A DNA stretch of 64,000 bases, taken from NCBI GenBank assembly GCA_024277525.1, contig JAJRUZ010000035.1, positions 1,930 through 65,929 on the forward strand. The letters run 5' to 3'. Shown one piece after another: positions 634 through 56,322 of the stretch (position 1 is the stretch's first letter; the number at the start of each line of letters is the position of its first letter). The notes beneath the pieces are model-generated. The model had not been told where the DNA came from and ran no database searches. It saw only the letters and a program-made list of their open reading frames with translations. The stretch comes from a candidate division WOR-3 bacterium. GTDB taxonomy: Bacteria > Hydrothermota > Hydrothermia > Hydrothermales > JAJRUZ01. The position numbers and the translations under genes are program-made.

Positions 634-3342
634 TTATTTAATTACCATAAATTTCCTTTTTAAAATATTTTTATTTCCATCATCAATCTTTATGAAATAA
701 ATTCCGTTTTTTAAACTCAAATCAATCTTTTTATAGCCTTTTTTAATAATCCTTTTTAAAACATTTCTTCCTGTTATATCATATATAAGCAATTTTATGT
801 CAAAAGGAGTTTTAACCTTTATGCTTCTCGGTTCAAATTTAATTTTTAATTTTTTATCATTAAAAACAAATTCCTTTACATCCAAGACTCTCTGAAGTAT
901 TTTAAAAGAAATTATTTTATTTAAATTTTTATCAGCAAAGAAAAGGGTGTCAGGATAAATTGTGTCCCCTTCTGTTACACTCGGATTCCCGCCTTCTGTT
1001 GAAAACTGAATGAGAAATATTGTGTCATTTATAAGTTCGGTTCTCGTAATTTCTCCTGAACCGGAAAGCCACGAATGGGAAGAAGAAAGCACAAGAGCAC
1101 TATCTATATTTGTCTCATTTATTTCTTTCAAAAGCACAACAGGCTCGGAGAATTTTATTATCACATGGTCAAAGGATGAATTGGGACTCGGTGAGAGAGG
1201 GGGATAATCATAAAAAATAGCACTTTCAATATAAGGTTTTTCATAATCAAGTGAACCTTCTGATCTTACTTTACCTTCTGCTATTTTATTTCTCCAGAGG
1301 TCCTCTATCGGATTTGCTGGGCTTACATAGACAGTGTCCCCTCTTTTAATAGGTTCTTCTCCCGAACCGTTAAACAGCACCAATAAAGTATCCTGAGATT
1401 TCCACTCGGTTTGAAGTGTATATCCTGAATTGAGCCAGGAACCGTTTTGAAGAGGAAACCACACATCTAAGGATTCCGGGTAAATAAATGGGGTATCCGT
1501 TTTTTCGGAAAAAATCATATATACCGTATCACCGATATTTGCTCCGTTATCAAAGAAACTTCCATCCGAGAGATAAACTTTTTTAAGTTTCGGTGGTATT
1601 ATGTCATCATAGGAACCCGTAATTATGCTCTGCGACAAAGTAGAATTACCGTAAATATCTTTTATGAATTTCTTTATTATTTTTAATGTATCTTCGGGAA
1701 CAGGAGGGGATAAAGAATTGTATAAAAATATTACAAGAGTATCATCGCTTATCCATTTTGCAGAATCCGCTCCTGCCAGGGTATTGCCTCCGGAAACATA
1801 AAACAGAGTATCTATTCCATTAACATCTATAAAGGGCTTATTTGTATTTTCATTAAAAACAATTACAAGCCTGTCATCAGAATCAATTCCGTTTTGTGAA
1901 AATTCTCCGTCGCTTATAAAACATTCCGAGATTAAAGGACCCGTAGTGTCCAGGTCATAGGTAAAATAAACTCTATCAACAAATGGTGTTTTTCCTACGG
2001 AGGTTCTGGAGATAATTATTCTGTATTGAAAATATCTCATTTTGGGATCTAAGTGAGTAATTGGGCTTCCATTTGAAGAATAGGGAATAAATTCCCATGA
2101 TAAAGCAGTACTCATATCGGGAAGTGTGTCTCCTCTTATTTGAATTTTTATATACCAAAGGTCAGTCCCTCTGATATATACTTTTTTAAAAAAGGTGGCA
2201 CCTTCATCCTTACCCCGTGAATCAAAAATTGAGGAAACAAGGTATCCATATGAAGGATAATTTGCTTTATAAATTTGTGCACCGCCAAGTGTACCACCCA
2301 AAAGTTCATAGTTATCTGTCTGAAAAATTGAAAAAGCATTTGGCACAGACCCCAGAGTATCCCATTTTATTCTGTCTGCTGTTCTGTAAACACCTTGCGA
2401 TGTTGCTCCGTATATATTTTCATCTTTTCCCATTGTAAGAGCATTGAATAAATTGGAATTATCAATATATATACTATCTATGAGGGCAAGCGAATTTGCT
2501 GGAAAATTAAATCTCCAGATAAAAGATTGTGTGGTGCTTGTATAGGGTACAAAGAGAATACCGGACAAAGTATCAAATAAAGGATGACCTATCAATACAT
2601 TTTTAAAAGTGCCAAAAAAATTAACCCAGCTTGTTCTTATATAAGGTGTTTTGGTGTAAAAAACACTCTCGCCACTGGTTTTAATTATTCCGATTGCGAC
2701 AGTATCCATACCATTATTAAAATAGGAAAAAATTAAATCTTTAAGATTTGCCGCCCAAACTACATAGAGGTAAGAAATCGAAGAAAAATCCGGATTAAGG
2801 GAATAATAAAGTTGTGATGCTGTAGCATCTGCACATAAATTAAAGAAATTTTTATAAAAGAAAATTTTATTAATTTCTTTCGGGGCAGGAGAAATAATTC
2901 TCTGATAAAATTTCTGTCCGTTATTTTGAGAAATCAATAAAATATAAGAAGTAGATGTCTTCCCCCCCAAATACCACCAGTTTTGAAATCTGAAAAAATC
3001 ATTATAGGATAAAACAGAAAAAGAGGATAAAGGCGCGAAGATTTGAGGGTCTCCCAAATCCACCGATATATACACTTTACCCGGGAAAGATTTTAAAATA
3101 AAAATGCTGTCGCTCCCCACTCTTTCAATTTGTGTTATCCTTGAAACAGAATCAGCTGCACTTTCCTTTAAATCCCATAATAAGGAAAAGCCCGAATATT
3201 TTAAACTCAGAGTTCCGCGCGGCTTATAAATATCAATATTTTCTTCTTCATAAAATTTCGTGGTATCTGTATAACTTATTTGTCCTCCACCTCCTGTCCA
3301 TGTTGATTGAGACCATATAAGGCTGAATAATAAAAGTAGCAT
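634..3342 (-). CDS. large secreted protein with three tandem Ig-like modules and a T9SS-type C-terminal sorting domain
   Basis: 902 aa with a short signal-like N-terminus. Three ~115-aa repeats (..SDG.F..NG..D.v.i.FsE.t..PfI..). C-terminal tail ..KNGIYFIKIDDGNKNILKRKFMVIK is typical of Por/T9SS CTDs. Confidence 0.6.
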   Translation of the reverse strand: MLLLLFSLIWSQSTWTGGGGQISYTDTTKFYEEENIDIYKPRGTLSLKYSGFSLLWDLKESAADSVSRITQIERVGSDSIFILKSFPGKVYISVDLGDPQIFAPLSSFSVLSYNDFFRFQNWWYLGGKTSTSYILLISQNNGQKFYQRIISPAPKEINKIFFYKNFFNLCADATASQLYYSLNPDFSSISYLYVVWAANLKDLIFSYFNNGMDTVAIGIIKTSGESVFYTKTPYIRTSWVNFFGTFKNVLIGHPLFDTLSGILFVPYTSTTQSFIWRFNFPANSLALIDSIYIDNSNLFNALTMGKDENIYGATSQGVYRTADRIKWDTLGSVPNAFSIFQTDNYELLGGTLGGAQIYKANYPSYGYLVSSIFDSRGKDEGATFFKKVYIRGTDLWYIKIQIRGDTLPDMSTALSWEFIPYSSNGSPITHLDPKMRYFQYRIIISRTSVGKTPFVDRVYFTYDLDTTGPLISECFISDGEFSQNGIDSDDRLVIVFNENTNKPFIDVNGIDTLFYVSGGNTLAGADSAKWISDDTLVIFLYNSLSPPVPEDTLKIIKKFIKDIYGNSTLSQSIITGSYDDIIPPKLKKVYLSDGSFFDNGANIGDTVYMIFSEKTDTPFIYPESLDVWFPLQNGSWLNSGYTLQTEWKSQDTLLVLFNGSGEEPIKRGDTVYVSPANPIEDLWRNKIAEGKVRSEGSLDYEKPYIESAIFYDYPPLSPSPNSSFDHVIIKFSEPVVLLKEINETNIDSALVLSSSHSWLSGSGEITRTELINDTIFLIQFSTEGGNPSVTEGDTIYPDTLFFADKNLNKIISFKILQRVLDVKEFVFNDKKLKIKFEPRSIKVKTPFDIKLLIYDITGRNVLKRIIKKGYKKIDLSLKNGIYFIKIDDGNKNILKRKFMVIK

Positions 3343-3381: not shown

Positions 3382-3723
3382 TTAATATTTTTTGAAAATC
3401 TCTTTAAGTTTCTCGAAAGTCACCGGCTTTTCAATTACCGGAACTTCTCGCGGAAGGTCCGTATCCGGACTCCCGGTTACAAAGAATGTTTTCCTTGACA
3501 ATTCGGGATATTCTTTTCTCAGAAACTCAAAAATTTCCTTTCCGCTTTTTTCAGGCATCATAACATCAAGAAGAACAAAATCAGGAGGGGATTTCTCTAA
3601 GGTCTCTTTGAATAATTTAAATTGAGAGAAGACCCTCACTTCAAAACCTAACTTTTCAAGCATTTTGGACACCGCCTCTCTCACAAAAGAATCATCGTCT
3701 AAATAATAAATTCTTTTTTGCAT
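3382..3723 (-). CDS. stand-alone response regulator receiver (CheY-like REC) protein
   Basis: 113 aa. Has the DD pair (YYLDDD), phospho-acceptor context FVLLDVMMP and a conserved K region (EKPVTFEKL). No output domain. Confidence 0.8.
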   Translation of the reverse strand: MQKRIYYLDDDSFVREAVSKMLEKLGFEVRVFSQFKLFKETLEKSPPDFVLLDVMMPEKSGKEIFEFLRKEYPELSRKTFFVTGSPDTDLPREVPVIEKPVTFEKLKEIFKKY

Positions 3724-3728: not shown

Positions 3729-3757
3729 ATTATAATAAATATTTTTTTAAAAATCAA
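3729..3757 (-). promoter_or_regulatory. sigma70-type promoter (TTGATT-17 nt-TATAAT) ending 5 nt before the REC gene ATG; possible leaderless mRNA
   Basis: Minus strand reads TTGATTtttaaaaaaatatttatTATAATttgatATG. No Shine-Dalgarno sequence between the -10 box and the ATG. Confidence 0.45.
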
Positions 3758-3778: not shown

Positions 3779-3814
3779 AAAAAAAATTGACACCTCCCTT
3801 TGAAGGGAGGTGTC
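3779..3814 (-). terminator. intrinsic terminator after the small peptide gene
   Basis: Perfect 12-bp GC-rich inverted repeat GACACCTCCCTT/AAGGGAGGTGTC with a 2-nt loop, followed on the minus strand by AATTTTTTTT. Confidence 0.75.
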
Positions 3815-3846: not shown

Positions 3847-4008
3847 TCAACCTAACGGATCAGGAGGGGGAAGAATCGGACCGGAGTCTGGTTCTACACC
3901 ATCGCAAACTACTATTCCTTTTGCGCTTGCTTTTTTTACTACATTTATATGCATCACTCCTGCGAATATCAACCCTACCAGGGCGATCAGGGCTATTAAT
4001 TTTTTCAT
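3847..4008 (-). CDS. small (53 aa) secreted or membrane-anchored Pro-rich peptide
   Basis: MKKLIALIALVGLIFAGVMHINVVKKASAKGIVVCDGVEPDSGPILPPPDPLG. AAGGAGG lies 7 nt before the ATG at 4008; the ORF-track start at 4062 has no RBS. Own promoter-like site and own terminator. Confidence 0.55.
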   Translation of the reverse strand: MKKLIALIALVGLIFAGVMHINVVKKASAKGIVVCDGVEPDSGPILPPPDPLG

Positions 4009-4030
4009 TTTAAACCTCCTTTTTAAATTA

Positions 4031-4045
4031 TCGGATTTGAACCGA
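4031..4045 (-). promoter_or_regulatory. T-arm-like leader hairpin, copy h (TCGG-TTCAAAT-CCGA)
   Basis: Coding-strand TCGGTTCAAATCCGA, 22 nt upstream of the ATG at 4008. Confidence 0.6.
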
Positions 4046-4058
4046 GATGATATATTTT

Positions 4059-4073
4059 TCAAAAATTATGCCA
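4059..4073 (-). promoter_or_regulatory. candidate sigma54 (-24/-12) promoter TGGCAT-N5-TTGA
   Basis: Minus strand reads TGGCATAATTTTTGA. GG and TTG have the canonical spacing, but the -12 element reads GA instead of GC. Sits immediately downstream of a sigma54-activator gene. Confidence 0.35.
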
Positions 4074-4123
4074 GATTTTTTTAAAAGAAGAATTTAATTG
4101 ATTTACAGAAAGATTTTAAATTT

Positions 4124-7100
4124 TTAAATTTTTTTTAAGAGACCATACTTTTTAAGTTTTTGAATCAAAGTCTGACGGGAAATATTTAATATTTTGGCGG
4201 TCTCGGTTTTATTCCAATTTGTCTTCTCTAAGACTTTTAAAATATATTTTTTCTCCATTTCTTCAAGCGGTAAAATTTTTTCTTTATCTTTCATACTTTT
4301 TCTTATCTCTTCCGGAAAATGCTCGGGACCTATTGCCTCACCGGGTTTTGAATTTAAAATTGCAAACTCAAGAGCAAATTTTAGTTCCCTTACATTTCCG
4401 GGCCAAGAATAATTATACAAATACTTCCATGTCTCATGTTTTATTCTTATCTTTTCTTTTATATTATGTTTCTTTATTATTTCTTTAAGAAAATGTGTAA
4501 TTAAAACAGGAATGTCATCTATTCTTTCCCTTAAAGGAGGGATATAAAAATAATAGCCTTTCAATCTGTAATAGAGGTCCTTTCTCAAAATTCCCTGTTT
4601 CACTTTCTCTTCAACATCGGGTAAAGCAGTTGCTATGACCATAACATCCACACTTTTTTCCCTTGTTGTGCCTAAGGGTCTTATCTTTCCTGTATCCAAG
4701 AACCTCAACAATTTCTCCTGAACAGGCGGAGGAATTGATTCCACATTTTCAAGAACAAGTGTTCCGTTGTCCGCTTGCTCAATCAAACCTGTTTTATCCT
4801 CATATGCACCTGTAAAAGCACCCTTTTTATACCCGAAAAGTTCACTCTCTGCGAGTGTTAAAGGAAATTCATTAAAAGAAAAAAATACAATCGGGTTGTT
4901 TTTCCTCAAACTTAATCTGTGAATCGTATCTGCAAGTAAAGTCTTCCCTGTGCCTGTCTCTCCCACTATTAAAATCGGTAAAGGCTTTTCAAGTTTTCTG
5001 ATTTTATCAATAAAGACAGTAATCCTGTTAATAAATTCCCTTGTCCCCACTATTTCTCCTATCCTTTCTATTTCCTTTAATTTTTGCTCCAACATCCTCT
5101 TCTCTTCTTCTATTTTTTCTTTTTCTTCTTTTATTTTATCAAAAAGAAGATTCCTCTGATAAGAAATTGTAAAAACATCAGCCATTATTCTTACAAGTTC
5201 CATATCCTCCTCTGTAAATTCCCTCTTTTTTCGTGAATCAAGATAAATTGCTCCGAAAGGTTTTCCTTCATAGAAAAGAGGAAGGCATAATATTGACCTT
5301 ATTCTGAACCTCCTTATGCTTTCCCTGTTTTTTAATTCAGGATGTGAAAATGTATCAGGTACAAAGAAATGGGTTCCCTTTTTTGAAGCAGAATATAATG
5401 AACTTTTGGATATATCAATTAACTCAATATTTATTTTCTTCTTGTACATTCTGTAAGTGCCTTTTACTTCGTATACATCTTTTTCGTCATCCTTTTTAAT
5501 TACTATCATTCCCCTTTCGCTGTTTGTTGCATTAGCAAGTATTTCAATTGTTCTATTAAAGAACTCCGTTTCCTCATGGTATTTTGAAGCATAAATAAGG
5601 TAATTTCTGAATATTTCCCATTTTGCATGACTCCTGATAATTGAAATGGAAGTTATTTTTAAAATTTCTTTCCTTATCTCTTCCAACTCGTGCTTCAAAA
5701 ACTTATCCTCTTCCCCCTCTATCATTTCATTTAAAAATTTCTCAAATTTTGTAATAATGCCGGAACTTAAAATTTTCTGCTTATTCTCATAAGCCAACAA
5801 AACATTAAAGAAGATAATTAAAAATTTTTTAAAATCTTTATTTGTTTTTAGTTCATCAGCTTTTTTAAGAAATCCGTCAAACCGGGTAAAGGCATTAACT
5901 ATGTGGTCGGATATAAGGTCATGAAAGGAATCAACAAAAATTTCAAATATGTCTGCAATGGGTAGAGAAAGTTTTATTCTTCTTATCTTCATCTTATACT
6001 TTTTATTCGGGGTCCGGTGCTCAACAAGGTCAATAAAGTAAAGTAAAAGTAAAAATAATTTCTGTTTCTGAATGTTATCCGTTTTTTCATAATGATCTAA
6101 AAGTGTTTGGGAATATTTTTTTATTTTGTTCAAATCTTTTATAATTGAATTAAAGAAAAGTAAGTCTTCAATTGTATTTATCTTTAAATAAAAAGGAAGG
6201 AACTTCTCTTTAACCTTTTCAAAATTTAACAACAATTCTTTAAATTTTTTATTATCTCCTTTTATTCTTACATAACGAATATACTCACTCATTATTTCTA
6301 TCAATTTCTCATTTAATTTTAATTTTTCACAAAGTTCAATTGCTCTCTTGTAATTATCTTCCGGGCTTTCACCGCTTAATTCTTTAAATTTTCCCTCAAG
6401 AAATTCTATATAAGGCTCAATGAAAGGAACGGGGTAACTTTTATGAATTGCCTTTATTTTCATCAATGCATTCTTAGCAGTTTCAATTGAATCTTTGTCA
6501 AGAAAATAATAAATTCTGATAAATTCGGTTAAAATATAGGGATAAGGGAAAATTTTTATATGCTTCAGAAACTCACTAATTCTTCGGGTTAAACGAATTG
6601 CCCTTTTCTTTTTGCCGATATTATATAAGAATTCAATATAATAAGCTAAATATTTATAGCTTTTTTCTGTTTCTCCCTCTTTTTTTGCCTTAAACAGACT
6701 TTTTCTGTAATCTATCTCCGCTTGTGCAAAATCTCCTTCAAACTCCTCTAATTTTGCTTTTACAAAATAAAACTGAGAGAGTTCCTCCGATGTGGCTTTC
6801 TTTTCGTACTTTTTAGCAAAAGTATGAAGAGTATTTTTTAATTTTTTTATATCATAAGTATTAAGCAGATAAAAACATTTTGAAAGCAAACCCCTTTTTG
6901 TATTCAATTTATCTATCACATTTACCGCTTTTTCGTATTCGCCTTTAAAATGATAATATAGTGATTTCCCTATTAAATATTTTTCTTTATTTTTCTTTTT
7001 CAATACATTTAATACCTCACTCACATTTTTCTCGTCCTTTTTAAAAGTATAATATATAAGCAGTTTCTCAAGTACATCAGAAGGTATTTTTTTGAGATCC

Positions 7101-8854
7101 GGTTTTTTCAAATTTTCAAAAAATGTGAATATATAAACCTGATTTTTTGTGTATATTTCTTCTATTTCTTCATTAAAATCTTTTGCAACCTCATACTTTC
7201 CGAGATTATATGCAGAAAGGTAAAATAAAAGTCTTCCTTCAAGGGATAATTTTTTTATATCTTTGAGATTCTTTAAAATCTTCTCAAATGTTCCTTTTCT
7301 CGATTCAAATTCAATCTCGGATAAAGGCACATACCCACCCCCTATTCTTTCAATAACTCTTCTATCGAGCAAACTTTTTATATTCCTTTCCCCGAATATT
7401 CTTTTTGTTTCAAATGTATTCAACTGTCCGAAGATGTTTAAAACATAAAGCACCTCTTTTTCTTCTTTTTTTAATCTTACTTCTGCTTTTGTAATTTTAT
7501 CAATCTCCCCTTTCTCCGAAAATTCTTTTATAAGTGTAAATACTTTTTTAAGGTCTCCTTTATTTTTTAAGACTGTTCTTTCAAATAATTTTTCTTTCCC
7601 GTATATACCGGTATTGTTCTCAATATATTGAACGATTTTTTCGGTATCAGGATCCGGGAATTCAATCACTTTACCCTTTAAATCAAAATCATAAGGAATT
7701 TCAATAACAACAGGAAATTTCCTTATTTTTTCCACCTCATATAAGGCGTTCAGGAAATTAATGAAAGTCTTTTTATGCAACGGAGGATCGGTCAAAATGA
7801 TGAAATAGGTTAAATCTGATTTTAAGTTTAATAAATGGGTAATCAAAAATGGATACAGATTTTCCTCTTTCAGGTTCAGATACGGTAATTTACCTTTATC
7901 TATTAAAAGACCGTTAAAATTTTCTTTAAGCTGAGTATAAATATTTCTTAAAATAAAACTTTTTCCTGTTCCTTTTTGCCCTTTGACAAGAAATATCCCT
8001 CCTTTCCTTTTGGAAATGTTTTCTTTTATTTTATTTTTTAAGTCTTTAAAAAATTGTTGATTTAAAATTTCTAAATCATTAAAATAAGTTCTTTTTTCGG
8101 AGAAAATTTTTTCTAATATCTCGGTCGCAGAAAGTCTTTTTTGAGGATCAGGATTAAGAATAAGGTCAAACAAGTTAATCCAGAAATCATCCTTGACCCT
8201 GTTTTTCCACTTTTTTTTATTTATAAAATCTTTCAAGCTCTCATAAGTCCTGAAACTTATTTCTTCTCCCGTAACCAATTCGTAAAGTACAATTCCTGCT
8301 GAAAACATATCCGATTTGTGCGTCGGAGATTCACCCGAAAGCACCTCAGGGGCACAATAGGGAATGGAACCTCTCGGAATTTTTTTCTCCGTAAAGGAGG
8401 CAAATCCGAAATCACTCAATACAGGATAAAATGACTTTTTGTGGGTGAAGAGGATGTTCTCCGGTTTTATGTCCGCATGAATAACACCGTTCTTTTCCAA
8501 ATAGGAAAGAATATCAAATAAATCTATCGCAAATTTTTTAAAGTCAAATTTCTCCTTCTCCTTTATTCTTTCCTTTAAATTTCCTCCGTTTAAATATTCA
8601 AGAACAAGAAAAGACTTCCATTGTGGATAAAAAAAGAAATCAAAGCTTTTTAAAATACCGGAATGATTCAATAAGGATAGGAAATAGAATTCATTATAAA
8701 GTTCTTTATGATTCTTATATTTTGTCTCTTTAAGAACAATATAATTCCCCGAAGGTTCTTTTAAAAGTGAAAGGGTATAATCTTTTGTTTTTCTTAGATC
8801 TTTTTCTTTTGTTAATATTGCATGTATCTCATATGTCCAGGCTCTCTTTTTCAT
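4124..8854 (-). CDS. multidomain regulator: Ser/Thr protein kinase, P-loop NTPase, helical (TPR-like) repeats, GAF, sigma54-interaction AAA+ domain and Fis-type HTH
   Basis: 1576 aa. Kinase motifs HADIKPENIL, DFG, APE. P-loop GQKGTGKS at about aa 292. GAF-like region at about aa 1075-1235. Enhancer-binding-protein (EBP) motifs GETGTGKT (nt 4940-4963), GAFTGA (nt 4805-4822) and WPGNVREL. C-terminal NISRQTLIQKLKKYGL. Confidence 0.85.
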   Translation of the reverse strand: MKKRAWTYEIHAILTKEKDLRKTKDYTLSLLKEPSGNYIVLKETKYKNHKELYNEFYFLSLLNHSGILKSFDFFFYPQWKSFLVLEYLNGGNLKERIKEKEKFDFKKFAIDLFDILSYLEKNGVIHADIKPENILFTHKKSFYPVLSDFGFASFTEKKIPRGSIPYCAPEVLSGESPTHKSDMFSAGIVLYELVTGEEISFRTYESLKDFINKKKWKNRVKDDFWINLFDLILNPDPQKRLSATEILEKIFSEKRTYFNDLEILNQQFFKDLKNKIKENISKRKGGIFLVKGQKGTGKSFILRNIYTQLKENFNGLLIDKGKLPYLNLKEENLYPFLITHLLNLKSDLTYFIILTDPPLHKKTFINFLNALYEVEKIRKFPVVIEIPYDFDLKGKVIEFPDPDTEKIVQYIENNTGIYGKEKLFERTVLKNKGDLKKVFTLIKEFSEKGEIDKITKAEVRLKKEEKEVLYVLNIFGQLNTFETKRIFGERNIKSLLDRRVIERIGGGYVPLSEIEFESRKGTFEKILKNLKDIKKLSLEGRLLFYLSAYNLGKYEVAKDFNEEIEEIYTKNQVYIFTFFENLKKPDLKKIPSDVLEKLLIYYTFKKDEKNVSEVLNVLKKKNKEKYLIGKSLYYHFKGEYEKAVNVIDKLNTKRGLLSKCFYLLNTYDIKKLKNTLHTFAKKYEKKATSEELSQFYFVKAKLEEFEGDFAQAEIDYRKSLFKAKKEGETEKSYKYLAYYIEFLYNIGKKKRAIRLTRRISEFLKHIKIFPYPYILTEFIRIYYFLDKDSIETAKNALMKIKAIHKSYPVPFIEPYIEFLEGKFKELSGESPEDNYKRAIELCEKLKLNEKLIEIMSEYIRYVRIKGDNKKFKELLLNFEKVKEKFLPFYLKINTIEDLLFFNSIIKDLNKIKKYSQTLLDHYEKTDNIQKQKLFLLLLYFIDLVEHRTPNKKYKMKIRRIKLSLPIADIFEIFVDSFHDLISDHIVNAFTRFDGFLKKADELKTNKDFKKFLIIFFNVLLAYENKQKILSSGIITKFEKFLNEMIEGEEDKFLKHELEEIRKEILKITSISIIRSHAKWEIFRNYLIYASKYHEETEFFNRTIEILANATNSERGMIVIKKDDEKDVYEVKGTYRMYKKKINIELIDISKSSLYSASKKGTHFFVPDTFSHPELKNRESIRRFRIRSILCLPLFYEGKPFGAIYLDSRKKREFTEEDMELVRIMADVFTISYQRNLLFDKIKEEKEKIEEEKRMLEQKLKEIERIGEIVGTREFINRITVFIDKIRKLEKPLPILIVGETGTGKTLLADTIHRLSLRKNNPIVFFSFNEFPLTLAESELFGYKKGAFTGAYEDKTGLIEQADNGTLVLENVESIPPPVQEKLLRFLDTGKIRPLGTTREKSVDVMVIATALPDVEEKVKQGILRKDLYYRLKGYYFYIPPLRERIDDIPVLITHFLKEIIKKHNIKEKIRIKHETWKYLYNYSWPGNVRELKFALEFAILNSKPGEAIGPEHFPEEIRKSMKDKEKILPLEEMEKKYILKVLEKTNWNKTETAKILNISRQTLIQKLKKYGLLKKI

Positions 8855-9693
8855 AGTATAACTTCTTCCCTTCTATCGGAATGACACTGAATATTAACTG
8901 CTACCGGCAATGAAGTAATATGACAGGGATATGTTTCAATATTAACATCAAGGGCTGTTATTCTTCCTCCGAGTCCCATAGGACCTATTCCGAGTTTGTT
9001 TATTTCCTCAAGCAGTTCTTCTTCAAATTGAGCATAAAAGGGGTCGGGATGTCTGTGTCCTATGGGTCTTGCGGTTGCTTTTTTTGCCAAGAATGCTGAA
9101 TATTCAAATGTCCCTCCGATTCCCACTCCCACTACAATAGGGGGACAGGGATTCGCCCCTGCTTTCTTAACTGTTTCAATTACAAATTTTTTAACCCCTT
9201 CCTTACCTTCACCCGGCAAAAGCATCTTGAAAGCACTCATATTTTCACTACCTCCTCCCTTCGGTTCAAATACTATCTTTAATTTGTCTCCGGGAACAAT
9301 ATCAAAATGAATGACAGGAGGGGTATTATCTCCTGTATTTTTCCTTCTTAACGGGTCTTCAACAATTGACTTTCTCAAATAGCCTTCTGTATAACCCTTT
9401 CTTATTCCCTCAATAAGTGCATCCTTGAGTGAACCACCTTCAATTTTCACATCTTCCCCTATTTCAACAAAAAGGACGGCAAAACCCGTATCCTGACATA
9501 AAGGCCTGTTATCCTCTTTTGCAACCTCAATATTTTTCAAAATCTGAGACAAAATTTCCTTCCCGAATGGGGATTCCTCTTTTTCATAAGCATTTTTCAA
9601 CGCATTAACCACATCGTCCTTTAATTCATGCGTTGCTTTTATGCACATATTTTTAACTTCTTCCACAATTTTTTCATATTTTATAATTTTCAT
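8851..9693 (-). CDS. Fe-S type hydro-lyase, fumarate/tartrate dehydratase alpha subunit (class I fumarase N-terminal domain)
   Basis: 280 aa with PLCQDTG motif and the overall FumA/TtdA alpha pattern. GGAGGAGG RBS. Stop overlaps the kinase start (ATGA). Confidence 0.8.
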   Translation of the reverse strand: MKIIKYEKIVEEVKNMCIKATHELKDDVVNALKNAYEKEESPFGKEILSQILKNIEVAKEDNRPLCQDTGFAVLFVEIGEDVKIEGGSLKDALIEGIRKGYTEGYLRKSIVEDPLRRKNTGDNTPPVIHFDIVPGDKLKIVFEPKGGGSENMSAFKMLLPGEGKEGVKKFVIETVKKAGANPCPPIVVGVGIGGTFEYSAFLAKKATARPIGHRHPDPFYAQFEEELLEEINKLGIGPMGLGGRITALDVNIETYPCHITSLPVAVNIQCHSDRREEVIL

Positions 9694-13155: not shown

Positions 13156-14397
13156 TTACATACACACAATAAGTGTGGACCATCCGAAGTTTCTCATTGC
13201 TTTACCGGGATGTCCTGAAAACGGGTCATAAAACTCACAAAATCCGTATTTTTTAATTAATTCAATCGTTCTATTTTTGATTTTTTCATAAATTTCCTTT
13301 TTTTTATGTCTTAAAAGTCCTTTTAAAATAAACCAATTTGTATTTATCCATGTTGTTCCTCTCCATAAAAATCTTGTATCTGTGAGGGGTCCGAAAGATT
13401 TTTCATCCTTTGAGACAGAAGGAATAGGGAACGGCAAAAAGAATTCGTTCGTATTTAAAAGATGCTCTAAAAGATTATTAACATAATATTCGGGTATATC
13501 AAGACATAAGGGAAAAAGAGATGAAATTGTTTTTACTTTTGCTTTAAACTCTTTATCCTTTTTATGATAAATCCCGTAAAATATTTTATCTTTTTCATCC
13601 CAAAATTTCTCTAAGATTTTTTCTTTTATTTTTTCGTAAAGTTTCTTCAGTTCTTTTGCTTTTTCTTTGTCAATAAGTTCCCATAAATTTGAAATCGAAT
13701 CTACTGATAGAGCATATATTGTATTAAAAGCAACATCTTCAAAATCAAAAATGTTTTTATTGAAAATTTCTTTAATATCCCATTTTAACTTTTTATATAT
13801 CTCAAGCATGTTTCTTATTTTTTTCTTTGTTAGAAGTGGATTATGGGAATAATTATCAAAAGCAAGATCAAATTGAGGAGCCATATCCATTCCGGACTCC
13901 ATCGGAGTTATTATTGAGATTAAAAAATCCTCGTCAGGGTCCCTTTCTTTCTTAAGATAATCAAAATATTTTTGAACTCTTGGGAGATATTTTTTCAGAA
14001 ACTCTTTATCCTGATTTTCTTTATAAATTTCCTTTATTGTAATTCCTATAACAGGGGGTTGAATTTCTGCTGTGAAATACTTGTATTGCGGATGGGCTTC
14101 CATTTTCCACCATTTTTTAAATATAAAAAAATCTTTAAATCTCATTTTCCAAAATATAATATGGGGAATGAAACCGTTTTCAAGCTGGCATGATAAAAGC
14201 GAGTCTATTTCTTTTATGCTGTATTCAAAATTAAATTTTGACATTACAATTGCATGGAAACATGAATCCCAGAACCATTGATGAAAGTGTTCTTTATCAG
14301 GTGCAATATAAAAATAATTCTTTTTAAGATTTTTACTGTATCCCTCTTTTTTATTGGACAATAAAATTTTTAATGCCCTTTCTTTCAGCTCTTCCAT
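13156..14397 (-). CDS. (alpha/alpha)6-barrel glycoside hydrolase-like protein (GH63/GH15-like, glucosyl/mannosylglycerate hydrolase-like)
   Basis: 413 aa. QWFWDSCFHAIV near the N-terminus and WRGTTWINTNWFILKGL near the C-terminus are typical of this fold. Family assignment is not verified. Confidence 0.5.
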   Translation of the reverse strand: MEELKERALKILLSNKKEGYSKNLKKNYFYIAPDKEHFHQWFWDSCFHAIVMSKFNFEYSIKEIDSLLSCQLENGFIPHIIFWKMRFKDFFIFKKWWKMEAHPQYKYFTAEIQPPVIGITIKEIYKENQDKEFLKKYLPRVQKYFDYLKKERDPDEDFLISIITPMESGMDMAPQFDLAFDNYSHNPLLTKKKIRNMLEIYKKLKWDIKEIFNKNIFDFEDVAFNTIYALSVDSISNLWELIDKEKAKELKKLYEKIKEKILEKFWDEKDKIFYGIYHKKDKEFKAKVKTISSLFPLCLDIPEYYVNNLLEHLLNTNEFFLPFPIPSVSKDEKSFGPLTDTRFLWRGTTWINTNWFILKGLLRHKKKEIYEKIKNRTIELIKKYGFCEFYDPFSGHPGKAMRNFGWSTLIVCM

Positions 14398-15743
14398 TCA
14401 ATATCATATTTTTTTATTTTTTCATAAAGGGTTTTTCTTGATATACCCAAAATTCTTGCAGCTTCACTTATATTTCCGTTTGAATCTTTTATTACCTTAC
14501 TGATAACTTCTTTCTCTATCCTTTCCATTTCTTTTTCCAAATAATCTTTTAAATTTCTTATTTCTTTTTCTTTCCTTCTTTCTTCTCTTTCGGTTATAAA
14601 CAAGTCCTCGGGTTTTATTATTCCGTCATCCGTCAGAATGGCTGCCCTTTCCAGCATATTTTCGAGTTCCCTTATATTGCCCGGATAATCATAAGATAAA
14701 AGAATCTCTTTTGTTCTATCTTCTAAGATCAATTCTTTACCGAGTTTTCTTTCCAGTTTTTTTATATAATTTTCTGCGATGAGTAAAATGTCCTCCTTTC
14801 TTTCCCTTAAAGCAGGTAGGTGAATGGGAAATACTGCAATTCTATAATAAAGGTCTTCACGAAATTCTCCTTTTTCAACCAATTTTTTAAGGTCCCTGTT
14901 TGTAGCTGCTATTATTCTTGGATCAACTTTAATCGGTTTCAGTCCCCCTAATCTTTCAATTTCCTTATATTCAATTGCTCTCAAAAGTTTTGCTTGTAAA
15001 TCAAGAGGTAATTCCGCTATTTCATCAAGGAAAAGTGTTCCTCCATCTGCAATTTCAAATTTACCTATCTTGGTTTTGTAGGCACCTGTAAAAGCTCCTT
15101 TTTCCGAGCCGAAGAGTTCATTCTCCAAAAGTTCTCGCGGAATAGCAGCACAGTTTATTGCAATAAAAGGTCCTTCCTTTCTTTTTGAATTCAAATGTAT
15201 AAATCTTGCAAATACTTCTTTTCCTGTCCCCGATTCACCTATTAAAAGAACTGTTATATCTTCTTCTGCTACTTTTTTTGCAAGGTTTAAAGCATCAAGG
15301 AATTTTTTGCTTTTTCCCACAATTTCGGGAAAAGGCTTAAGGAGTTCTTCTTTTAATGCTTTTTCTTTTTCTTTTTCTTTCTTTATTTTTTCTATCAGTA
15401 TTATCACTTCTGAAGGTTCAAAAGGTTTTGTTAAATAATGATATGCTCCTTTTTTAATTGCTTTAATCGCATCTTCTATTGAGCCGTATGCGGTTACCAC
15501 AATTATTTCGCTTCTTACACCGATTTTATTTTTAAGTTCATCCAAAAGTTCGATTCCATTTGCTTCTTTTAACCTTACATCTAAGATTATAAACTCCGGC
15601 TCCTCTGTTTTCAGTTCTTTTAAAAATTTGTCAACCTCTGTAAATGCTTTTGCTTCGTATCCCTTTTTTTGAAGAAACAGTCTCAACGACTCCGCAAAAC
15701 TTTTGTTATCATCAAGAATATGAATTCTTTCTCTATTCTCCAT
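14385..15743 (-). CDS. NtrC-family sigma54-dependent response regulator (REC, AAA+, Fis HTH)
   Basis: DD..LDVRL receiver, GESGTGKE, GAFTGA, GGTLFLDEI, YPGNIRELEN, C-terminal ISRKTLYEKIKKY. Confidence 0.9.
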   Translation of the reverse strand: MENRERIHILDDNKSFAESLRLFLQKKGYEAKAFTEVDKFLKELKTEEPEFIILDVRLKEANGIELLDELKNKIGVRSEIIVVTAYGSIEDAIKAIKKGAYHYLTKPFEPSEVIILIEKIKKEKEKEKALKEELLKPFPEIVGKSKKFLDALNLAKKVAEEDITVLLIGESGTGKEVFARFIHLNSKRKEGPFIAINCAAIPRELLENELFGSEKGAFTGAYKTKIGKFEIADGGTLFLDEIAELPLDLQAKLLRAIEYKEIERLGGLKPIKVDPRIIAATNRDLKKLVEKGEFREDLYYRIAVFPIHLPALRERKEDILLIAENYIKKLERKLGKELILEDRTKEILLSYDYPGNIRELENMLERAAILTDDGIIKPEDLFITEREERRKEKEIRNLKDYLEKEMERIEKEVISKVIKDSNGNISEAARILGISRKTLYEKIKKYDIEWKS

Positions 15744-17010
15744 AAAAGGGAATAATTATATCAATTTTTGTGCCTTTATTTTCTTCGGATTCTACTTTTA
15801 TATCCCATCCCTGAATTTTAACTATCTGATAAACCATAGATAATCCGAGCCCGAGATTTTCTTTTTTTGTAGTAAAAAACGGAACAAAAATGTTTTTTAA
15901 TGTCTTTTTATCCATTCCTTTGCCGTTATCCTGAATGGAAATTATTATATTATCCTCTGTTTTTTTTGTTTCAATCCTTATTTTGCCCTCCCTTTCAATT
16001 GCTTCAATTGAGTTATTAATTATATTAAAAAATAACTTTTGGGTTAAAATAGGAAGACACTTTATATTAAGATCCTGAATATTCTTTTCAATTTCAATAT
16101 TTTTATCAGTTTTCCTAATCTTGGACTTAACTTCCTCTTCTATGCTATCCATCATTTCTTTAAGATTTGCAATTGAGTAGTCTTCTGTTCTTCCTTTCAT
16201 CAGGTTATTATATTCATTTAAAACCTGTTTCAATTCCATGATTTTATCTTCTGTCTCATGAATCAAATTTTTAATTTCTTCATCTTCTTCTTTTATGGAT
16301 ATTTCAAGCAACTTTAGGGTATTCAAAAGAGAGGCAATGATATTATTTATTTCATGAATTAAGTTTGCGGTGAAATGCCCGAGTATTAAGAATTTGTTTT
16401 CCATTTGTTTCTTTTTTAATATCTTTAATGTTTTCTTATCAAGAATTCCTTTAAATATTTTTTCTGCATCAATCTCTTCTTTTTCCATTATTTCTCTTAT
16501 GAGATTAAAAGGTTTCAAAATCGTGAAGATAAAAACAGCAAATGTTAGAACCCATAAAAAAATTATTATTATTCTTGTAATTTCGTATGATTTATTCGTT
16601 TTAAAAATATAGGGTGTTGTTCTCATAATCAAAAAGGTTGTATCTTTTGACGTATATTTTGCTATATATGTGTTTGAATTTAAAAACTCAAAATCATTCT
16701 CGGAAGAGATAAATTTATTCATCATTTTCCTATCCAGTTCCATCCCCCCGTATTCAGAATAGATTTTTTTATATTTATTTTTATGAAACACATAGAGCAT
16801 CTCTATATCAGGTGATAATCTAAATAACTGAATTAAATCTTTTATCTTTTTACCTTTTAATGATTTTATTTGACTGTGTATATAATTTTCTATAAACATT
16901 TTTTCAACTTCTTTTTCCTGTCTGTATATTATCTCCAGAATTATGGGAATACTGAATAGAATCAAAACAGTGAAAGTAAGCAAAATATTGATGATTCTTA
17001 TTTTATTCAA
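15733..17010 (-). CDS. sensor histidine kinase (two TM segments, HisKA, HATPase_c)
   Basis: H-box ANLIHEINN, N-box FFNIINNSIEA, G-boxes DNGKGM and GLGLSM. TTG start. Confidence 0.85.
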   Translation of the reverse strand: MNKIRIINILLTFTVLILFSIPIILEIIYRQEKEVEKMFIENYIHSQIKSLKGKKIKDLIQLFRLSPDIEMLYVFHKNKYKKIYSEYGGMELDRKMMNKFISSENDFEFLNSNTYIAKYTSKDTTFLIMRTTPYIFKTNKSYEITRIIIIFLWVLTFAVFIFTILKPFNLIREIMEKEEIDAEKIFKGILDKKTLKILKKKQMENKFLILGHFTANLIHEINNIIASLLNTLKLLEISIKEEDEEIKNLIHETEDKIMELKQVLNEYNNLMKGRTEDYSIANLKEMMDSIEEEVKSKIRKTDKNIEIEKNIQDLNIKCLPILTQKLFFNIINNSIEAIEREGKIRIETKKTEDNIIISIQDNGKGMDKKTLKNIFVPFFTTKKENLGLGLSMVYQIVKIQGWDIKVESEENKGTKIDIIIPFYGE

Positions 17011-17016
17011 AATTAT

Positions 17017-17895
17017 TTATTTAGTGAAAGAAAAATTAAGTCTGTAAGTTACATTATTTCCTGCTGTATCCGAGACTTCAAATTCAATTACATAATTTCC
17101 TTCTTTTTCCAGCTTTCCGTTAATTATTCCCTGGATACTGTCAATAGTTATTCCGGGTGGTGCTTTTTTTAATTTGAATTTTAAAGGGTCTCCATCGTAG
17201 TCATAAGCCGGAATTTTAAAGTTTATTACACCGTTTTTTGCTGTTAATTTTTCTCCGGGTTTAATTTTTATTTCCGGGGGAGAATTGAGAACGAATGTTC
17301 TCAGAATAAAAGGAGTTTCTGATGTATCTTCTCCATCAAATGCATAAATAAATACTTCAATCATATCACCTGTTTTAAGGTTTACTTCTATTTCGTTTCC
17401 GTTTTTTGCGTATTCTTCACCGTTTATTCTCCATTCGCATATATATTCAAGTTCATCGCCATCATCATCTGCTCCTTCTATATTTACTTTTATTTTCTTC
17501 TGTTTGGAAAATACTTTTTTTCCTTCAAATTCTGCGTTTTTAATATAGGGTTTTGAATTTTTGACCGTTACGGTATCAGAATAAAATTTTTTTCCGTTTA
17601 CAATCAATTCTGCGAAGACTTTATCTCCTTTTTTAAAATATTCGGGTAATAAAAATTTTCCTCCTTTTTTGAATTCTCCGTTTACATACCATTTAACATC
17701 AAAATTTTCGCCTTTAAGTCCTTGTATCCTTACCCTCAGCTTTTCTGTTCCGGAAGGTTCTTTCGGTATTATTTCAAAGTTTTTTATTCCTTCCTCGGGT
17801 TTTTTATATTTCTTTTTTTCTTCCCTTTTACAGGTTATGCATAGCAACAGAGGTAGAATAAGGAATATCTTTGTAAAATTATCCACCAGGAACAT
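17017..17895 (-). CDS. lipoprotein with Ig-like / cadherin-like repeats
   Basis: Lipobox-like LLLCITC. Repeats with DDDGDELEY and YDYDGDPLKF..APPGITIDS..G.I.G motifs. Confidence 0.6.
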   Translation of the reverse strand: MFLVDNFTKIFLILPLLLCITCKREEKKKYKKPEEGIKNFEIIPKEPSGTEKLRVRIQGLKGENFDVKWYVNGEFKKGGKFLLPEYFKKGDKVFAELIVNGKKFYSDTVTVKNSKPYIKNAEFEGKKVFSKQKKIKVNIEGADDDGDELEYICEWRINGEEYAKNGNEIEVNLKTGDMIEVFIYAFDGEDTSETPFILRTFVLNSPPEIKIKPGEKLTAKNGVINFKIPAYDYDGDPLKFKLKKAPPGITIDSIQGIINGKLEKEGNYVIEFEVSDTAGNNVTYRLNFSFTK

Positions 17896-18358
17896 TCGGG
17901 ACCCTTCTCAATAAAGTATGAAGTTCGTACCGGAGATTATCTCTTACTGCTTCTGATATAATCAGATATTCAAGAGCAGTTGAGCCTACGGCACTTTTTG
18001 CGACTCCTTTATATGCTTCCGCAAAGCCTATGTATCCGCCTGCTAAGGGGGTTGAAGCCATTTTCCTTGTAAAAACGATTATCTTAAAACCTTCTTTATT
18101 TAACTCTTTTGTTCCGAGATAAGTATTAGAGCCGGTTGAAAAAGCCAATTGGACTGTTTGCATTCCTTCCTGTATTCCGTATTCAGACATTGCGAATGCA
18201 TCGCCTATGGTTTTTTGGGTAGTTGTAATAATCATAGTCTTTGAGACAAGGAAGAGTGCAAGAGTTGCCAAAATTAAAACAACAGTAAGAACTATAACAG
18301 TAGTAACCAAAGCCACCCCCTCTTTCCCCTTATTTTTGCTTATTATTTTATCTTTCAT
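17879..18358 (-). CDS. PilX-like pilus assembly protein / minor pilin
   Basis: N-terminal KGKEGVALVTTVIVLTVVLILATLALF (PilX_N-like) with an AGGAGG RBS. Located in a minor-pilin operon. Confidence 0.55.
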   Translation of the reverse strand: MKDKIISKNKGKEGVALVTTVIVLTVVLILATLALFLVSKTMIITTTQKTIGDAFAMSEYGIQEGMQTVQLAFSTGSNTYLGTKELNKEGFKIIVFTRKMASTPLAGGYIGFAEAYKGVAKSAVGSTALEYLIISEAVRDNLRYELHTLLRRVPNVPGG

Positions 18359-18373
18359 AAAAAACCTCCTTTT

Positions 18374-19300
18374 TTATCTTTTTAAATTTCTCGGATATAT
18401 TACATTTGAAAATTTGGCTCTGGGGAATTTTTTTTCAACATCCGAAAGAGTAATGATTCTATTTTCTAATTGCACCGTATCTTTCGGAAATTCATAACCT
18501 ACAAGACCTTCCTCTGTTCTCACAAGGAGGGAAATTCTCAGAAGGACGGATTTTGTATAAAATTCATAGGGAGAGTATTGAGGCATTGAGTCCCTCCATA
18601 CATCAAAATCCAAATTTCCGTCATTATCCCAATCCGCACAGACCCTTACTTCAAAATCCTCAACATTATCAAGAAAAATTTCTCCGTTTCTCTCCAATGT
18701 GGTTCCGTCTAACATATAAATAATCGTATCTACGATGCGTGAAGAATTTCCCGGTTCAATCAAAACATAGCCTTTCTGCACACTCATAGCGCCTGCCGGT
18801 AGATTTGTAGTAATGTAATAAAGAGAATCGGATACGGTTGTTATTGAAAGAACATTTAAGACATTGTTCCATACCGGATTCCCTCTGTTGTCCACTATTA
18901 TTAAATAATCCCCGACTTTAAAATTGCGGGTTGTATCCGCCCATCTATAAGCAGGGATAACATTTGAACTTGTAGTTTGAGTTGCAATGGTCCATTTTCC
19001 GGATGAAGGATCAAGAGGAAAATCTGCTGCAAGTAAGAGTAAAGTATCCGGGGAGATACTGTCTCCATCCCTATACAAAAAAGGGATTACCGAATCTGGA
19101 ACACACAATCCTGCATGTAATACTTCCTGTGATAACACATTGAGAGCTATCTGTGCCTCGGAAAATAAAGTTGCTTTTTCGCTTACTTCGCTACTTTTTC
19201 TGCTCTGTGTTATAAAAATTGAAATAACCATCGCCATCACTATGCTGAAAATAAGCATACTTACCATCATTTCAATTATTGTTAATCCTTTCTTTTTCAT
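18374..19300 (-). CDS. PilW-like minor pilin (prepilin-type N-terminal cleavage/methylation domain)
   Basis: MKKKG|LTIIEMMVSMLIFSIVMAMV prepilin leader plus hydrophobic helix. 308 aa. Confidence 0.65.
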   Translation of the reverse strand: MKKKGLTIIEMMVSMLIFSIVMAMVISIFITQSRKSSEVSEKATLFSEAQIALNVLSQEVLHAGLCVPDSVIPFLYRDGDSISPDTLLLLAADFPLDPSSGKWTIATQTTSSNVIPAYRWADTTRNFKVGDYLIIVDNRGNPVWNNVLNVLSITTVSDSLYYITTNLPAGAMSVQKGYVLIEPGNSSRIVDTIIYMLDGTTLERNGEIFLDNVEDFEVRVCADWDNDGNLDFDVWRDSMPQYSPYEFYTKSVLLRISLLVRTEEGLVGYEFPKDTVQLENRIITLSDVEKKFPRAKFSNVIYPRNLKR

Positions 19301-19301
19301 C

Positions 19302-19724
19302 TTATTCCCTCCATTTTTCCATCAGTCTCGAAAAGTGGAATGTTTTTCCGCCGGAATTCCAAAATACAAATATTTTGATTTTCTTGAGTGTGCCATTGTC
19401 TGCTATGTTCCATATTACAGTGTAAGGTAAACCCTCAATTGTATCGGTTTTGGTATAATCAGGCAGTAACGGAGGTACATTGTCCAAATCAAGTGTATCT
19501 CCGTCATCCAAAAGTAAGGTATCATCATAAGAAAGAGTAGAGAATGTTTCTACATATTTGTTAAGTTCATGTATTGCACTTTTTCTGTGGTTTGTCAAAA
19601 TAAGAGCATGGGAACCGAAAAGCACAAGTCCGAGAAGCCCACCTGCAAATACTATGCCTAATATTGCAATAGCCACTATTACTTCAAGTAAAGTAAATCC
19701 TTTTCTTTTATTTTTCAGTACCAT
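19302..19724 (-). CDS. PilV-like minor pilin (prepilin-type N-terminal domain)
   Basis: MVLKNKRKG|FTLLEVIVAIAILGIV. Start set at the ATG at 19724, which is preceded by a G-rich tract; the track start at 19745 would give an atypically long leader. Confidence 0.65.
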   Translation of the reverse strand: MVLKNKRKGFTLLEVIVAIAILGIVFAGGLLGLVLFGSHALILTNHRKSAIHELNKYVETFSTLSYDDTLLLDDGDTLDLDNVPPLLPDYTKTDTIEGLPYTVIWNIADNGTLKKIKIFVFWNSGGKTFHFSRLMEKWRE

Positions 19725-20224: not shown

Positions 20225-20228
20225 AGCA

Positions 20229-20660: not shown

Positions 20661-20670
20661 TTTAAACCTC

Positions 20671-24414: not shown

Positions 24415-24444
24415 TTTCAAACCTCCTTCTTAACCTAATTTAAT

Positions 24445-52007: not shown

Positions 52008-52032
52008 TAAATATATAGTTGAATCCTGAAGG

Positions 52033-52665: not shown

Positions 52666-52669
52666 ATTA

Positions 52670-56314: not shown

Positions 56315-56322
56315 TGTGTAAA

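Follow-up and report, generated by a model that had tools for sequence, protein, structure and literature searches.

The 64-kb window analysed here, i.e. the whole stretch of 64,000 nucleotides taken from a candidate division WOR-3 bacterium, carries on its minus strand a gene for a 1576-residue regulator, in which a Hanks-type kinase domain, a STAND-type P-loop NTPase with helical repeats and a GAF domain precede the AAA+ module and helix-turn-helix (HTH) of a sigma54-dependent enhancer-binding protein (EBP). On the comparisons made below, what is new in this regulator is a set of clade-fixed changes in the catalytic site of the AAA+ domain, the fusion architecture itself being already common in databases. 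The gene and its parts are as follows.

4124..8854, minus strand: the whole regulator gene, a single open reading frame (ORF) starting with ATG, 1576 aa, from the ORF listing and its translation
8105..8731, minus strand: Hanks-type kinase domain, residues 42-250 in Pfam
7325..8059, minus strand: STAND-type core, residues ~266-510, with a five-stranded P-loop domain, a helical domain and a winged helix
7958-7981, minus strand: STAND Walker A motif GQKGTGKS, residues 292-299
5579..7297, minus strand: paired-helix TPR-like repeats, ~570 aa, residues ~520-1092, the least conserved part
5171..5575, minus strand: GAF domain, residues 1094-1228, from Pfam
4532..5047, minus strand: sigma54-interaction AAA+ domain, residues 1270-1441, from profile and alignments
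4745..4750, minus strand: Walker B codons Glu1369-Asn1370, which replace Asp-Glu, from translation and alignments
4283..4531, minus strand: AAA+ lid, residues 1442-1524, with the sensor II motif WPGNVREL (R1489)
4145..4267, minus strand: Fis-type HTH (HTH_8), residues 1530-1570, from Pfam

The stretch 4124..8854 is a genuine single gene for a sigma54-type regulator. A search of 5.8 billion proteins returned two full-length orthologues, P0002 (50% identity, 1567 aa), which was found in both JGI and NCBI, and P0003 (46% identity, 1566 aa), found in GCA_039804025.1 and a Logan assembly and carrying the database name ‘sigma 54-interacting transcriptional regulator [candidate division WOR-3 bacterium]’. 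Both align colinearly with the window protein (P0001) from residue 1 to the stop, and the gene order coaBC, udg, ymdB, fumarate hydratase alpha, regulator, spacer and receiver-only response regulator is common to the three loci; in the window there is a 4-nt overlap between the start of the regulator and the stop of the fumarate hydratase alpha gene, and two of the three loci show such an overlap. Because colinear full-length orthologues with the same flanking genes occur in independent assemblies, an assembly chimera or a pseudogene was ruled out and the single-gene reading of the first-pass annotation, which had been made from the sequence alone, stands; the motifs that it quoted (HADIKPENIL, SDFG, CAPE, GQKGTGKS, GETGTGKT, GAFTGA, WPGNVREL and TLVLEN) are likewise all present in the translation. 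When the orthologue alignment was run against GTDB genomes and JGI metagenomes, only unrelated EBPs and the locus already known came back, and an exhaustive search of 1.84 billion cluster representatives gave just one close cluster. Identity among the orthologues is highest in the AAA+ domain (72–80%), about 50% in the kinase and lowest in the repeats (33–42%).

The domains named in the first-pass annotation (kinase, P-loop NTPase, GAF, sigma54 AAA+ and Fis-type HTH) were all recovered by profile, structure and homologue comparisons. In the Pfam-A profile search, Pkinase matched residues 42-250 (E 6e-37), AAA_16 the P-loop region (36.1 bits against a cut-off of 32.6), GAF_2 residues 1094-1227 (E 1e-12), Sigma54_activat (PF00158) residues 1280-1433 (E 3e-53), AAA_lid_14 residues 1442-1524 and HTH_8 residues 1530-1570, with no Pfam match in the regulator to the LuxR-type HTH (GerE). 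Among NCBIfam models, the C-terminal ~490 residues are nearest to NorR and NifA, both under their equivalog cut-offs.

It is in the AAA+ domain that the regulator departs from its relatives. The PDB matches of the EBP domain were NtrC4, ZraR and NtrC1 (E 1e-49 to 1e-57), and in the HMMER alignments ‘tlvlEN’ of the window protein aligns to ‘tlfldE’ of these three proteins, and ‘fSfne’ to ‘lNvas’ or ‘lNcaa’ of solved EBPs. The Glu-Asn in place of the Walker B Asp-Glu at nt 4745-4750, already noticed in the first reading of the sequence, is thus placed in the right register at residues 1369-1370 and is fixed in the three orthologues, and the neighbouring NtrC-type regulator (14385-15743, minus strand) is canonical, as had been said, with GGTLFLDE, INCAA and IAATN. 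The EBP module had also been described as complete, which needs correction, since besides Glu-Asn four or five more near-invariant residues of the ATPase site are replaced; these additional substitutions strengthen the earlier suspicion that ATP hydrolysis is altered. Using an EBP core profile, 218 domains were aligned, and the percentages below are relative to 208–218 EBP domains.

First Walker B residue: Asp in 97% of other EBP domains; Glu in the window clade
Second Walker B residue: Glu in 92% of other EBP domains; Asn in the window clade
Glutamate-switch position: Asn in 74% and Asp in 12% of others; Ser (S1326) in the window clade
Residue after the Walker A Lys: Glu in 82% of others (GKE); Thr (GKT, T1305) in the window clade
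Arg of the beta4 DVR motif: Arg in 96% of others; Met (M1405) in the window clade
Sensor-I pair: Thr or Ser, then Asn or His (Asn or His at the second position in ~92%); Ala then Leu (A1410-L1411) in the window clade

P0001, P0002 and P0003 share all these substitutions, the one exception being Ser at the first sensor-I position of P0003, and the full combination was found only in the three orthologues and in none of 208 other EBP domains compared. Kept are the Walker A Lys (K1304), the R-hand residues R1424, D1426 and R1430, the sensor II R1489, and the GAFTGA loop (residues 1345-1350, nt 4805-4822, within KGAFTGA at 1344-1350), which is invariant in the orthologues. The PspF residues K42, E43, N64, F85/T86, D107/E108 and R162/D164/R168 map onto the regulator at a constant offset of 1262; therefore the AAA+ core contains no insertions or deletions relative to PspF. 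Since it is the most conserved domain of the protein, the AAA+ domain is, judged by this conservation, functional, constrained and re-engineered, not decaying.

Several of the altered positions have been mutated individually in PspF, where an ATPase activity of 39.5 min-1 in the wild type falls to 1.37 in E43A, 1.5 in N64Q, 0.23 in D107A, 0.15 in E108A and 0.07 in E108Q (PMC3419264). The E108Q variant binds ATP ~30-fold more tightly, is hexameric without nucleotide, engages the closed complex through GAFTGA in long-lived complexes, activates at ~100-fold lower ATP with a preference for pre-melted DNA, and retains some substrate-stimulated turnover (PMC4132715). By analogy, the EBP of the window clade is predicted to bind ATP tightly, to assemble and to contact sigma54, and to hydrolyse ATP slowly or not at all, and would be a natural counterpart of PspF E108Q. 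In both, an amide takes the place of the catalytic Glu and the GAFTGA loop, R-hand and Walker A Lys are intact, and the PspF variant still activates with less than 1% of the ATPase activity. The two differ in that the PspF variant was engineered in the E. coli phage-shock EBP whereas the present one is natural and clade-fixed, combines the amide with Asp to Glu, Ser for N64, Thr for E43 and the sensor-I changes, has Asn and not Gln, and lies inside a 1576-aa sensor protein.

The idea of a unique architecture was rejected. The same Pkinase–AAA_16–TPR–GAF–Sigma54–HTH_8 layout occurs in dozens of clusters from several phyla. With the distant match P0004 as query, ~30 clusters of 1266–1960 aa with both Pkinase and Sigma54_activat were retrieved, most of them also with AAA_16, TPR, GAF and HTH_8, from Deltaproteobacteria, Polyangia, Planctomycetota, Eisenbacteria and WOR-3. 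The GAF-EBP part alone gave 177,367 matches in an exhaustive HMMER search of the 1.84 billion cluster representatives, and ~60 of the best 150 are proteins of 1440–2183 aa with the match at the C-terminus. A kinase catalytic-loop motif is present in 56 of the 191 EBP-containing proteins collected, most of the 56 having a P-loop ~170–200 residues after it. The relatives match TPR_MalT, and their names are generic (‘sigma 54-interacting transcriptional regulator’ in NCBI, ‘PknK’ or ‘Nif-specific regulatory protein’ in JGI). Full-text searches of the literature yielded no paper that describes an EBP fused to a kinase; genome papers on myxobacteria may contain an earlier mention. By shared domain order and alignment, the regulator is a member of a widespread, experimentally uncharacterised kinase–STAND–TPR–GAF–EBP family. 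The database members (e.g. P0025-P0043, including the WOR-3 protein P0042, MEO0122752.1) have the same domain order and ~1450–1960 aa, and their GAF-EBP modules are the nearest relatives of that of the window regulator; in BLASTP, P0041 and P0042 show 27–28% identity to it over kinase and P-loop and 32–33% over GAF-EBP. They differ from the window clade at the AAA+ site, where all 25 members examined keep the Walker B Asp-Glu and the Asn or Asp of the xNCxA switch, in contrast to the Glu-Asn, Ser, GKT, Met and Ala-Leu of the window clade.

Further conserved elements lie directly downstream of the regulator, from the spacer to the response regulator.

4058..4074, minus strand: sigma54-type -24/-12 element CTGGCATAATTTTTGAA, 50 nt after the regulator stop codon
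4033..4043, minus strand: conserved 11-mer GGTTCAAATCC, tRNA T-loop-like, in the predicted 5' untranslated region between promoter and ribosome-binding site, at the same place in the orthologue loci L001 and L003
3847..4008, minus strand: micro-ORF MKKLIALIALVGLIFAGVMHINVVKKASAKGIVVCDGVEPDSGPILPPPDPLG, 53 aa, with a strong AGGAGG ribosome-binding site
3789..3814, minus strand: intrinsic terminator, conserved in the orthologue loci and made up of an 11-bp stem (7 G-C pairs) and a T-run
3729..3757, minus strand: sigma70-like TTGATT-N17-TATAAT (10/12), 5 nt before the response-regulator ATG
3382..3723, minus strand: receiver-only response regulator, 113 aa, the neighbour in all three loci

CTGGCATAATTTTTGAA is the sole match to a relaxed -24/-12 pattern in the 64-kb window, and sigma54-type elements stand in the same position in both orthologue loci (CTGGTATATATTTTGCA and CTGGAACAAATTTTTCA); the pattern occurs once per orthologue locus, in the same relative place, and nowhere else in the 17 loci fetched. 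In all three loci the order is sigma54-type element, GGTTCAAATCC, AGGAGG, GPILPP ORF, terminator, sigma70-like promoter and receiver, and the conserved module spans 3847-4074 (minus strand) in the window, 8602-8726 in L001 and 12742-12836 in L003. The micro-ORF core GPILPPxxPxP is part of a 53-aa product with a signal-like N-terminus in the window and of products of 16–17 aa in the orthologue loci. Translation of the micro-ORF is argued for by the GPILPP codons, which differ between loci at third positions only, all synonymously (GGT CCG ATT CTT CCC CCT in the window, GGA CCA ATA CTT CCT CCA in L001). From this arrangement, the promoter at 4058-4074 with its micro-ORF is likely to be a direct target of the regulator.

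The response regulator retains its acidic pocket and phospho-acceptor Asp, and the sigma70-like promoter, which ends 5–6 nt before its ATG in all three loci, suggests that its mRNA is leaderless. The stems that GGTTCAAATCC can form are just 3–4 bp, and a search of the spacer for an RNA element gave no Rfam match below E 0.26 and no tRNA. Attenuation by proline stalling was ruled out, the proline codons being ~30–60 nt from the terminator stem. An inverted repeat, TTACAGA/TCTGTAA, in L001 and L003 was considered as an enhancer and dropped, as part of it falls within codons and the window lacks it.

Support for the rule that the target lies just downstream comes from two database relatives of a low-GC sub-lineage, P0042 and P0041, which share with the window regulator a sigma54 promoter directly after the gene and, unlike the loci with Glu-Asn, possess clear dyad enhancers. 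Between the P0042 stop codon and an HD-domain gene, its locus (L010) contains two perfect dyads, TGCGACAATTTGTCGCA, together with a sigma54 promoter of consensus sequence. The locus of P0041 (L013) has the same dyads and promoter, and after them a 62-aa ORF whose product has a lipoprotein-like signal and ends in GGYIPKPPPIK. The positions of the dyads, of form TGCGACA-N3/4-TGTCGCA, and of the promoter are as follows.

L010: dyads at 9017-9036 and 9088-9106, promoter at 9157-9171
L013: dyads at 7921-7938 and 7990-8008, promoter at 8073-8087

No such element was found within 1 kb downstream of the high-GC family members. The genes downstream of the P0042 and P0041 sites encode HD or GAF-HD proteins. 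A further arrangement was seen after the Eisenbacteria member P0039 (L014, 7691-9094), where a 78-aa ORF with a signal peptide, a truncated 201-aa Sigma54_activat-like ORF and a receiver follow one another, an arrangement reminiscent of the small secreted ORF and the receiver that are paired in the window.

For the middle of the protein an AlphaFold2 model of residues 255-1095 was built on an alignment of 25 relatives (mean predicted local distance difference test score 83.4, predicted template modelling score 0.64). It consists, in order, of a five-stranded P-loop domain, a helical bundle, a helix–helix–helix–strand–strand winged helix and ~570 residues of paired helices. In a Foldseek search of the PDB, the top match was 6mfv_A, a STAND protein with a TPR sensor (E 9e-9); SAMD9, Avs3 and many TPR solenoids came next. 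The TM-scores are low (0.2–0.4), as expected for a flexible multi-domain model. The STAND Walker A aligns with an invariant G-x-x-G-x-G-K-S/T in 24 relatives. The Walker B, IILTD, has the second acidic residue only, where most relatives have hhhhDD; the first acidic position is Asp in 15 of 25 relatives, several others being degenerate too. The model thus shows the middle region as a STAND NTPase with a repeat arm, which is presumed to act as a sensor. The TPR-like repeats proposed in the first reading are borne out by the model and the Foldseek matches and not by any strong Pfam match, and the PknK/MalT-like character given to the front end is backed by profile, structure and homologue evidence.

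The kinase domain is less easily interpreted. Its landmarks K42, E55, H126, D128, K130, N133, D148-F-G, A168-P-E, D182 and R240 are invariant among the orthologues, and it is a non-RD kinase as had been stated, the catalytic loop reading HAD or HSD and not HRD in the regulator clade, with Ala (Ser in orthologue sequence) for the Arg. The glycine-rich loop is replaced by LRKTKDYTLS, so that all three of its Gly are gone: the three columns, which are Gly in 110, 118 and 102 of 134 relatives, are Arg, Thr and Tyr here, and the Pfam match begins only at model position 35. The kinase activity implied by the earlier annotation is less certain for this loss. The domain may be an active phosphotransferase or a nucleotide-sensing or scaffolding pseudokinase. 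The kinases of P0041 and P0042 also lack the glycine-rich loop and read HSDLKPEH, with His for the catalytic-loop Asn, and in this low-GC sub-lineage the domain may be a pseudokinase.

The regulator was compared with the known systems that its parts recall. PknK of M. tuberculosis (Rv3080c) and the MalT/LAL regulators share with it the AAA_16/STAND NTPase with TPR/MalT-like helical repeats, preceded in PknK by a kinase, and for STAND proteins of the MalT/PknK type ATP- and ligand-controlled oligomerisation is expected. MalT/LAL proteins, however, end in a LuxR HTH and PknK contains no DNA-binding domain, where the window regulator has GAF, sigma54 EBP and Fis-type HTH_8; in addition, its STAND Walker B has one acidic residue and its kinase no glycine-rich loop. 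Because the output differs, the regulator is, on its domain content, a member of neither the MalT/LAL nor the PknK family. The C-terminal 490 residues have the GAF–AAA+–HTH_8 layout of NorR, NifA, FhlA and PexR, and in such GAF-EBPs the GAF domain represses the AAA+ domain until a signal arrives (PMC2941729, PMC12754779); unlike these, the window regulator has 1090 extra N-terminal residues and a non-canonical ATPase site. The kinase–STAND–(TPR)–GAF scaffold also occurs in HstK-type dual kinases and other Pkinase–AAA_16–GAF proteins, some with degenerate glycine-rich loops, which differ in their outputs: His kinase (P0015, P0056), GGDEF (P0052, P0071, P0080, P0131), HD (P0008), STAS (P0079), LuxR (P0058) and SARP (P0109).

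Sigma54 promoters are the textbook case of promoters that do not open without ATP hydrolysis by an AAA+ activator. From the gene and its domains, its family, the substitutions and their conservation, and the arrangement of promoter and micro-ORF downstream, we infer a low ATPase activity, the identity of the target, an order of signalling steps and a role for the kinase, and we think it probable, with moderate confidence, that the regulator is a multi-input sigma54 activator acting as an ATP-binding switch with slow or no hydrolysis, with the downstream promoter as its target. On the model of MalT/PknK, NorR and PexR, the C-terminal AAA+ domain would be held off by the STAND-repeat arm together with the GAF domain until a ligand or partner binds. 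The released AAA+ modules would oligomerise, and their GAFTGA loops would engage sigma54-RNA polymerase at a nearby promoter, most likely the sigma54-type promoter 50 nt downstream, which would drive the proline-rich micro-ORF and from which read-through might reach the conserved receiver-only response regulator. In doing so the AAA+ domain would bind ATP tightly and, once assembled, engage the closed complex, with hydrolysis slow or nil.

A number of observations weigh against this proposal. At the ATPase site, the first-position Walker B Glu together with the Asn could support hydrolysis, as Asn can orient the attacking water. Loss of the catalytic Glu is also seen in ~7% of the sampled EBP domains, which include degenerate copies in tandem-EBP proteins and a few Asp-Gln variants, among them the kinase fusions P0155 and P0213. 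The canonical EBP of the same genome (14385-15743) keeps Asp-Glu, the switch Asn and ATN, so that the organism as a whole has not relaxed its need for hydrolysis. At the promoter, the -12 dinucleotide is the canonical GC only in L001, being GA in the window and TC in L003, and the same window sequence allows a weak sigma70-like reading (CTGGCA-16-TATCAT, 9/12). In the three Glu-Asn loci, an inverted-repeat tool and a palindrome scan applied to the 340 nt that precede the promoter returned AT-rich noise only and no enhancer dyad; the same scan caught the perfect dyads in L010. Finally, rpoN was not found among the annotated ORFs of the window, so that the presence of sigma54 in the genome rests on the canonical PilR-type EBP at 14385-15743.

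The alternative that survives best, which we regard as unlikely, is that the protein activates sigma54 in the ordinary way, with full hydrolysis, and differs only in the size of its sensory front end; Glu-Asn and its accompanying changes would then form a compensated catalytic geometry, and Glu1369 would take over the catalytic or Mg-binding role. The conservation of the AAA+ domain above all other parts, the intact R-hand, sensor II, Walker A Lys and GAFTGA, the acidic residue that Walker B still has and the look of several co-fixed changes as co-adapted and not as random decay would all fit it. Single changes at four of the altered positions, however, each cut the ATPase activity of PspF 25- to 500-fold, the polar sensor-I residue has become Leu and the beta4 Arg has become Met, and the combination is present in none of 208 other EBP domains.

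An improbable alternative, for which the long life of PspF E108Q with the closed complex provides a precedent, is a negative or modulatory EBP that holds the closed complex poised or blocked, alone or in mixed rings with a canonical EBP, and whose release would come through the kinase, STAND or GAF inputs or the neighbouring response regulator. A predicted hydrolysis defect alongside an intact sigma54-contact loop would suit such a role, as would the position of GGTTCAAATCC, the sole conserved non-coding motif besides the promoter, which sits downstream of it in an operator-typical place, and degenerate EBP domains do occur beside canonical ones in tandem-EBP proteins, e.g. P0135 and P0193. 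Nevertheless, PspF E108Q still activates, no partner EBP is encoded adjacent to the regulator in any of the three loci, and the relatives with a canonical site show activator-type upstream dyads and promoters.

It is barely credible that the protein is not a transcription regulator but an anti-phage or conflict STAND system whose effector is the kinase: kinase-fused STAND NTPases do occur in defence systems, Avs3 and SAMD9 are among the Foldseek matches and PADLOC kinase models match the kinase domain, but the output is an EBP with HTH, all loci have the gene in a conserved operon of housekeeping genes (coaBC, udg, ymdB, fumA) without defence neighbours, and the possibility was rejected on the PADLOC matches, which are at domain level only, with no system-level model. 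We give virtually no weight to an artefact, whether a chimeric assembly, a pseudogene formed by fusion or Walker B codons misread in sequencing, with three lineages at 46–50% identity colinear over their full length in independent assemblies, Glu-Asn identical in all of them, and a base composition that is even throughout the gene, without a break.

A bolder version of the ATP-binding switch, and a long shot, is that the Glu-Asn clade comprises hydrolysis-independent activators that would open an AT-rich promoter with a weak -12 element at ~65 C, with the TPR arm as autoinduction receptor for the mature GPILPPxP peptide, the gene for which, immediately downstream, would itself be activated by the regulator through sigma54. 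The temperature comes from the proteins of the window, in which the IVYWREL fraction is 0.427, Lys 11.9%, Glu 9.0% and Ile 9.7%, with a charged-minus-polar bias of 14%; by the Zeldovich relation a fraction of 0.427 corresponds to growth at ~65 C. The protein composition thus looks thermophile-like despite a GC content of 33%, and the host looks heat-loving. The peptide part draws on an analogy with the RRNPP cassettes (Rap/NprR/PlcR/PrgX with a pro-peptide gene), where a cytoplasmic TPR regulator stands beside a small ORF; the small ORFs of the window and of the P0041 locus likewise have a signal-like N-terminus and a short C-terminal motif. There is no homology between the two systems, the present regulator being of a STAND and sigma54 EBP class in which peptide binding is hypothetical, and the two orthologue loci encode peptides of 16–17 aa without a signal sequence.

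PspF E108Q showed that ATP binding alone does part of the activator's job, and the window clade would allow the hydrolysis requirement of sigma54 activation to be gauged in a natural case. The locus is also a compact, conserved module of regulator, promoter, micropeptide and response regulator, which offers a handle on a large unstudied regulator family and, possibly, on a peptide-signalling loop in an uncultured phylum.

Elsewhere in the window, the canonical NtrC-type EBP forms a PilR/PilS-like pair with a His kinase within 14385-24420 (minus strand), adjoining minor pilins with N-methyl motifs and a gene for a 1249-aa PilY1-domain protein; by its gene content this is a type IV pilus regulatory cluster, and it suggests that the genome uses sigma54. 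On the other side of the regulator, 634-3342 (minus strand) encodes a 902-aa protein whose sole Pfam match is a C-terminal Por_Secre_tail, the type IX secretion sorting domain; this gene is not beside the regulator in the orthologue loci, where nadA is found instead. A fused LpxC-FabZ-like protein (LpxC and FabA-like domains, 417 aa) at 30508-31761 (plus strand) is followed by LpxA, which from these gene assignments indicates a diderm envelope with lipid A synthesis. The interval 51162-60332 is a cluster of genes for CoA-dependent fermentation or beta-oxidation, with the D-component of a 2-hydroxyacyl-CoA dehydratase, a BcrAD/BadFG-type activator, an AMP-binding ligase, two enoyl-CoA hydratases and 3-hydroxyacyl-CoA dehydrogenases. 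At its end, 58320-60332 (minus strand), a FadB-like enzyme seems to be split into a 523-aa ORF, with 3HCDH and the first ~150 positions of enoyl-CoA hydratase, and an adjacent 131-aa ORF with the hydratase C-terminus, which may reflect a frameshift or a sequencing error.

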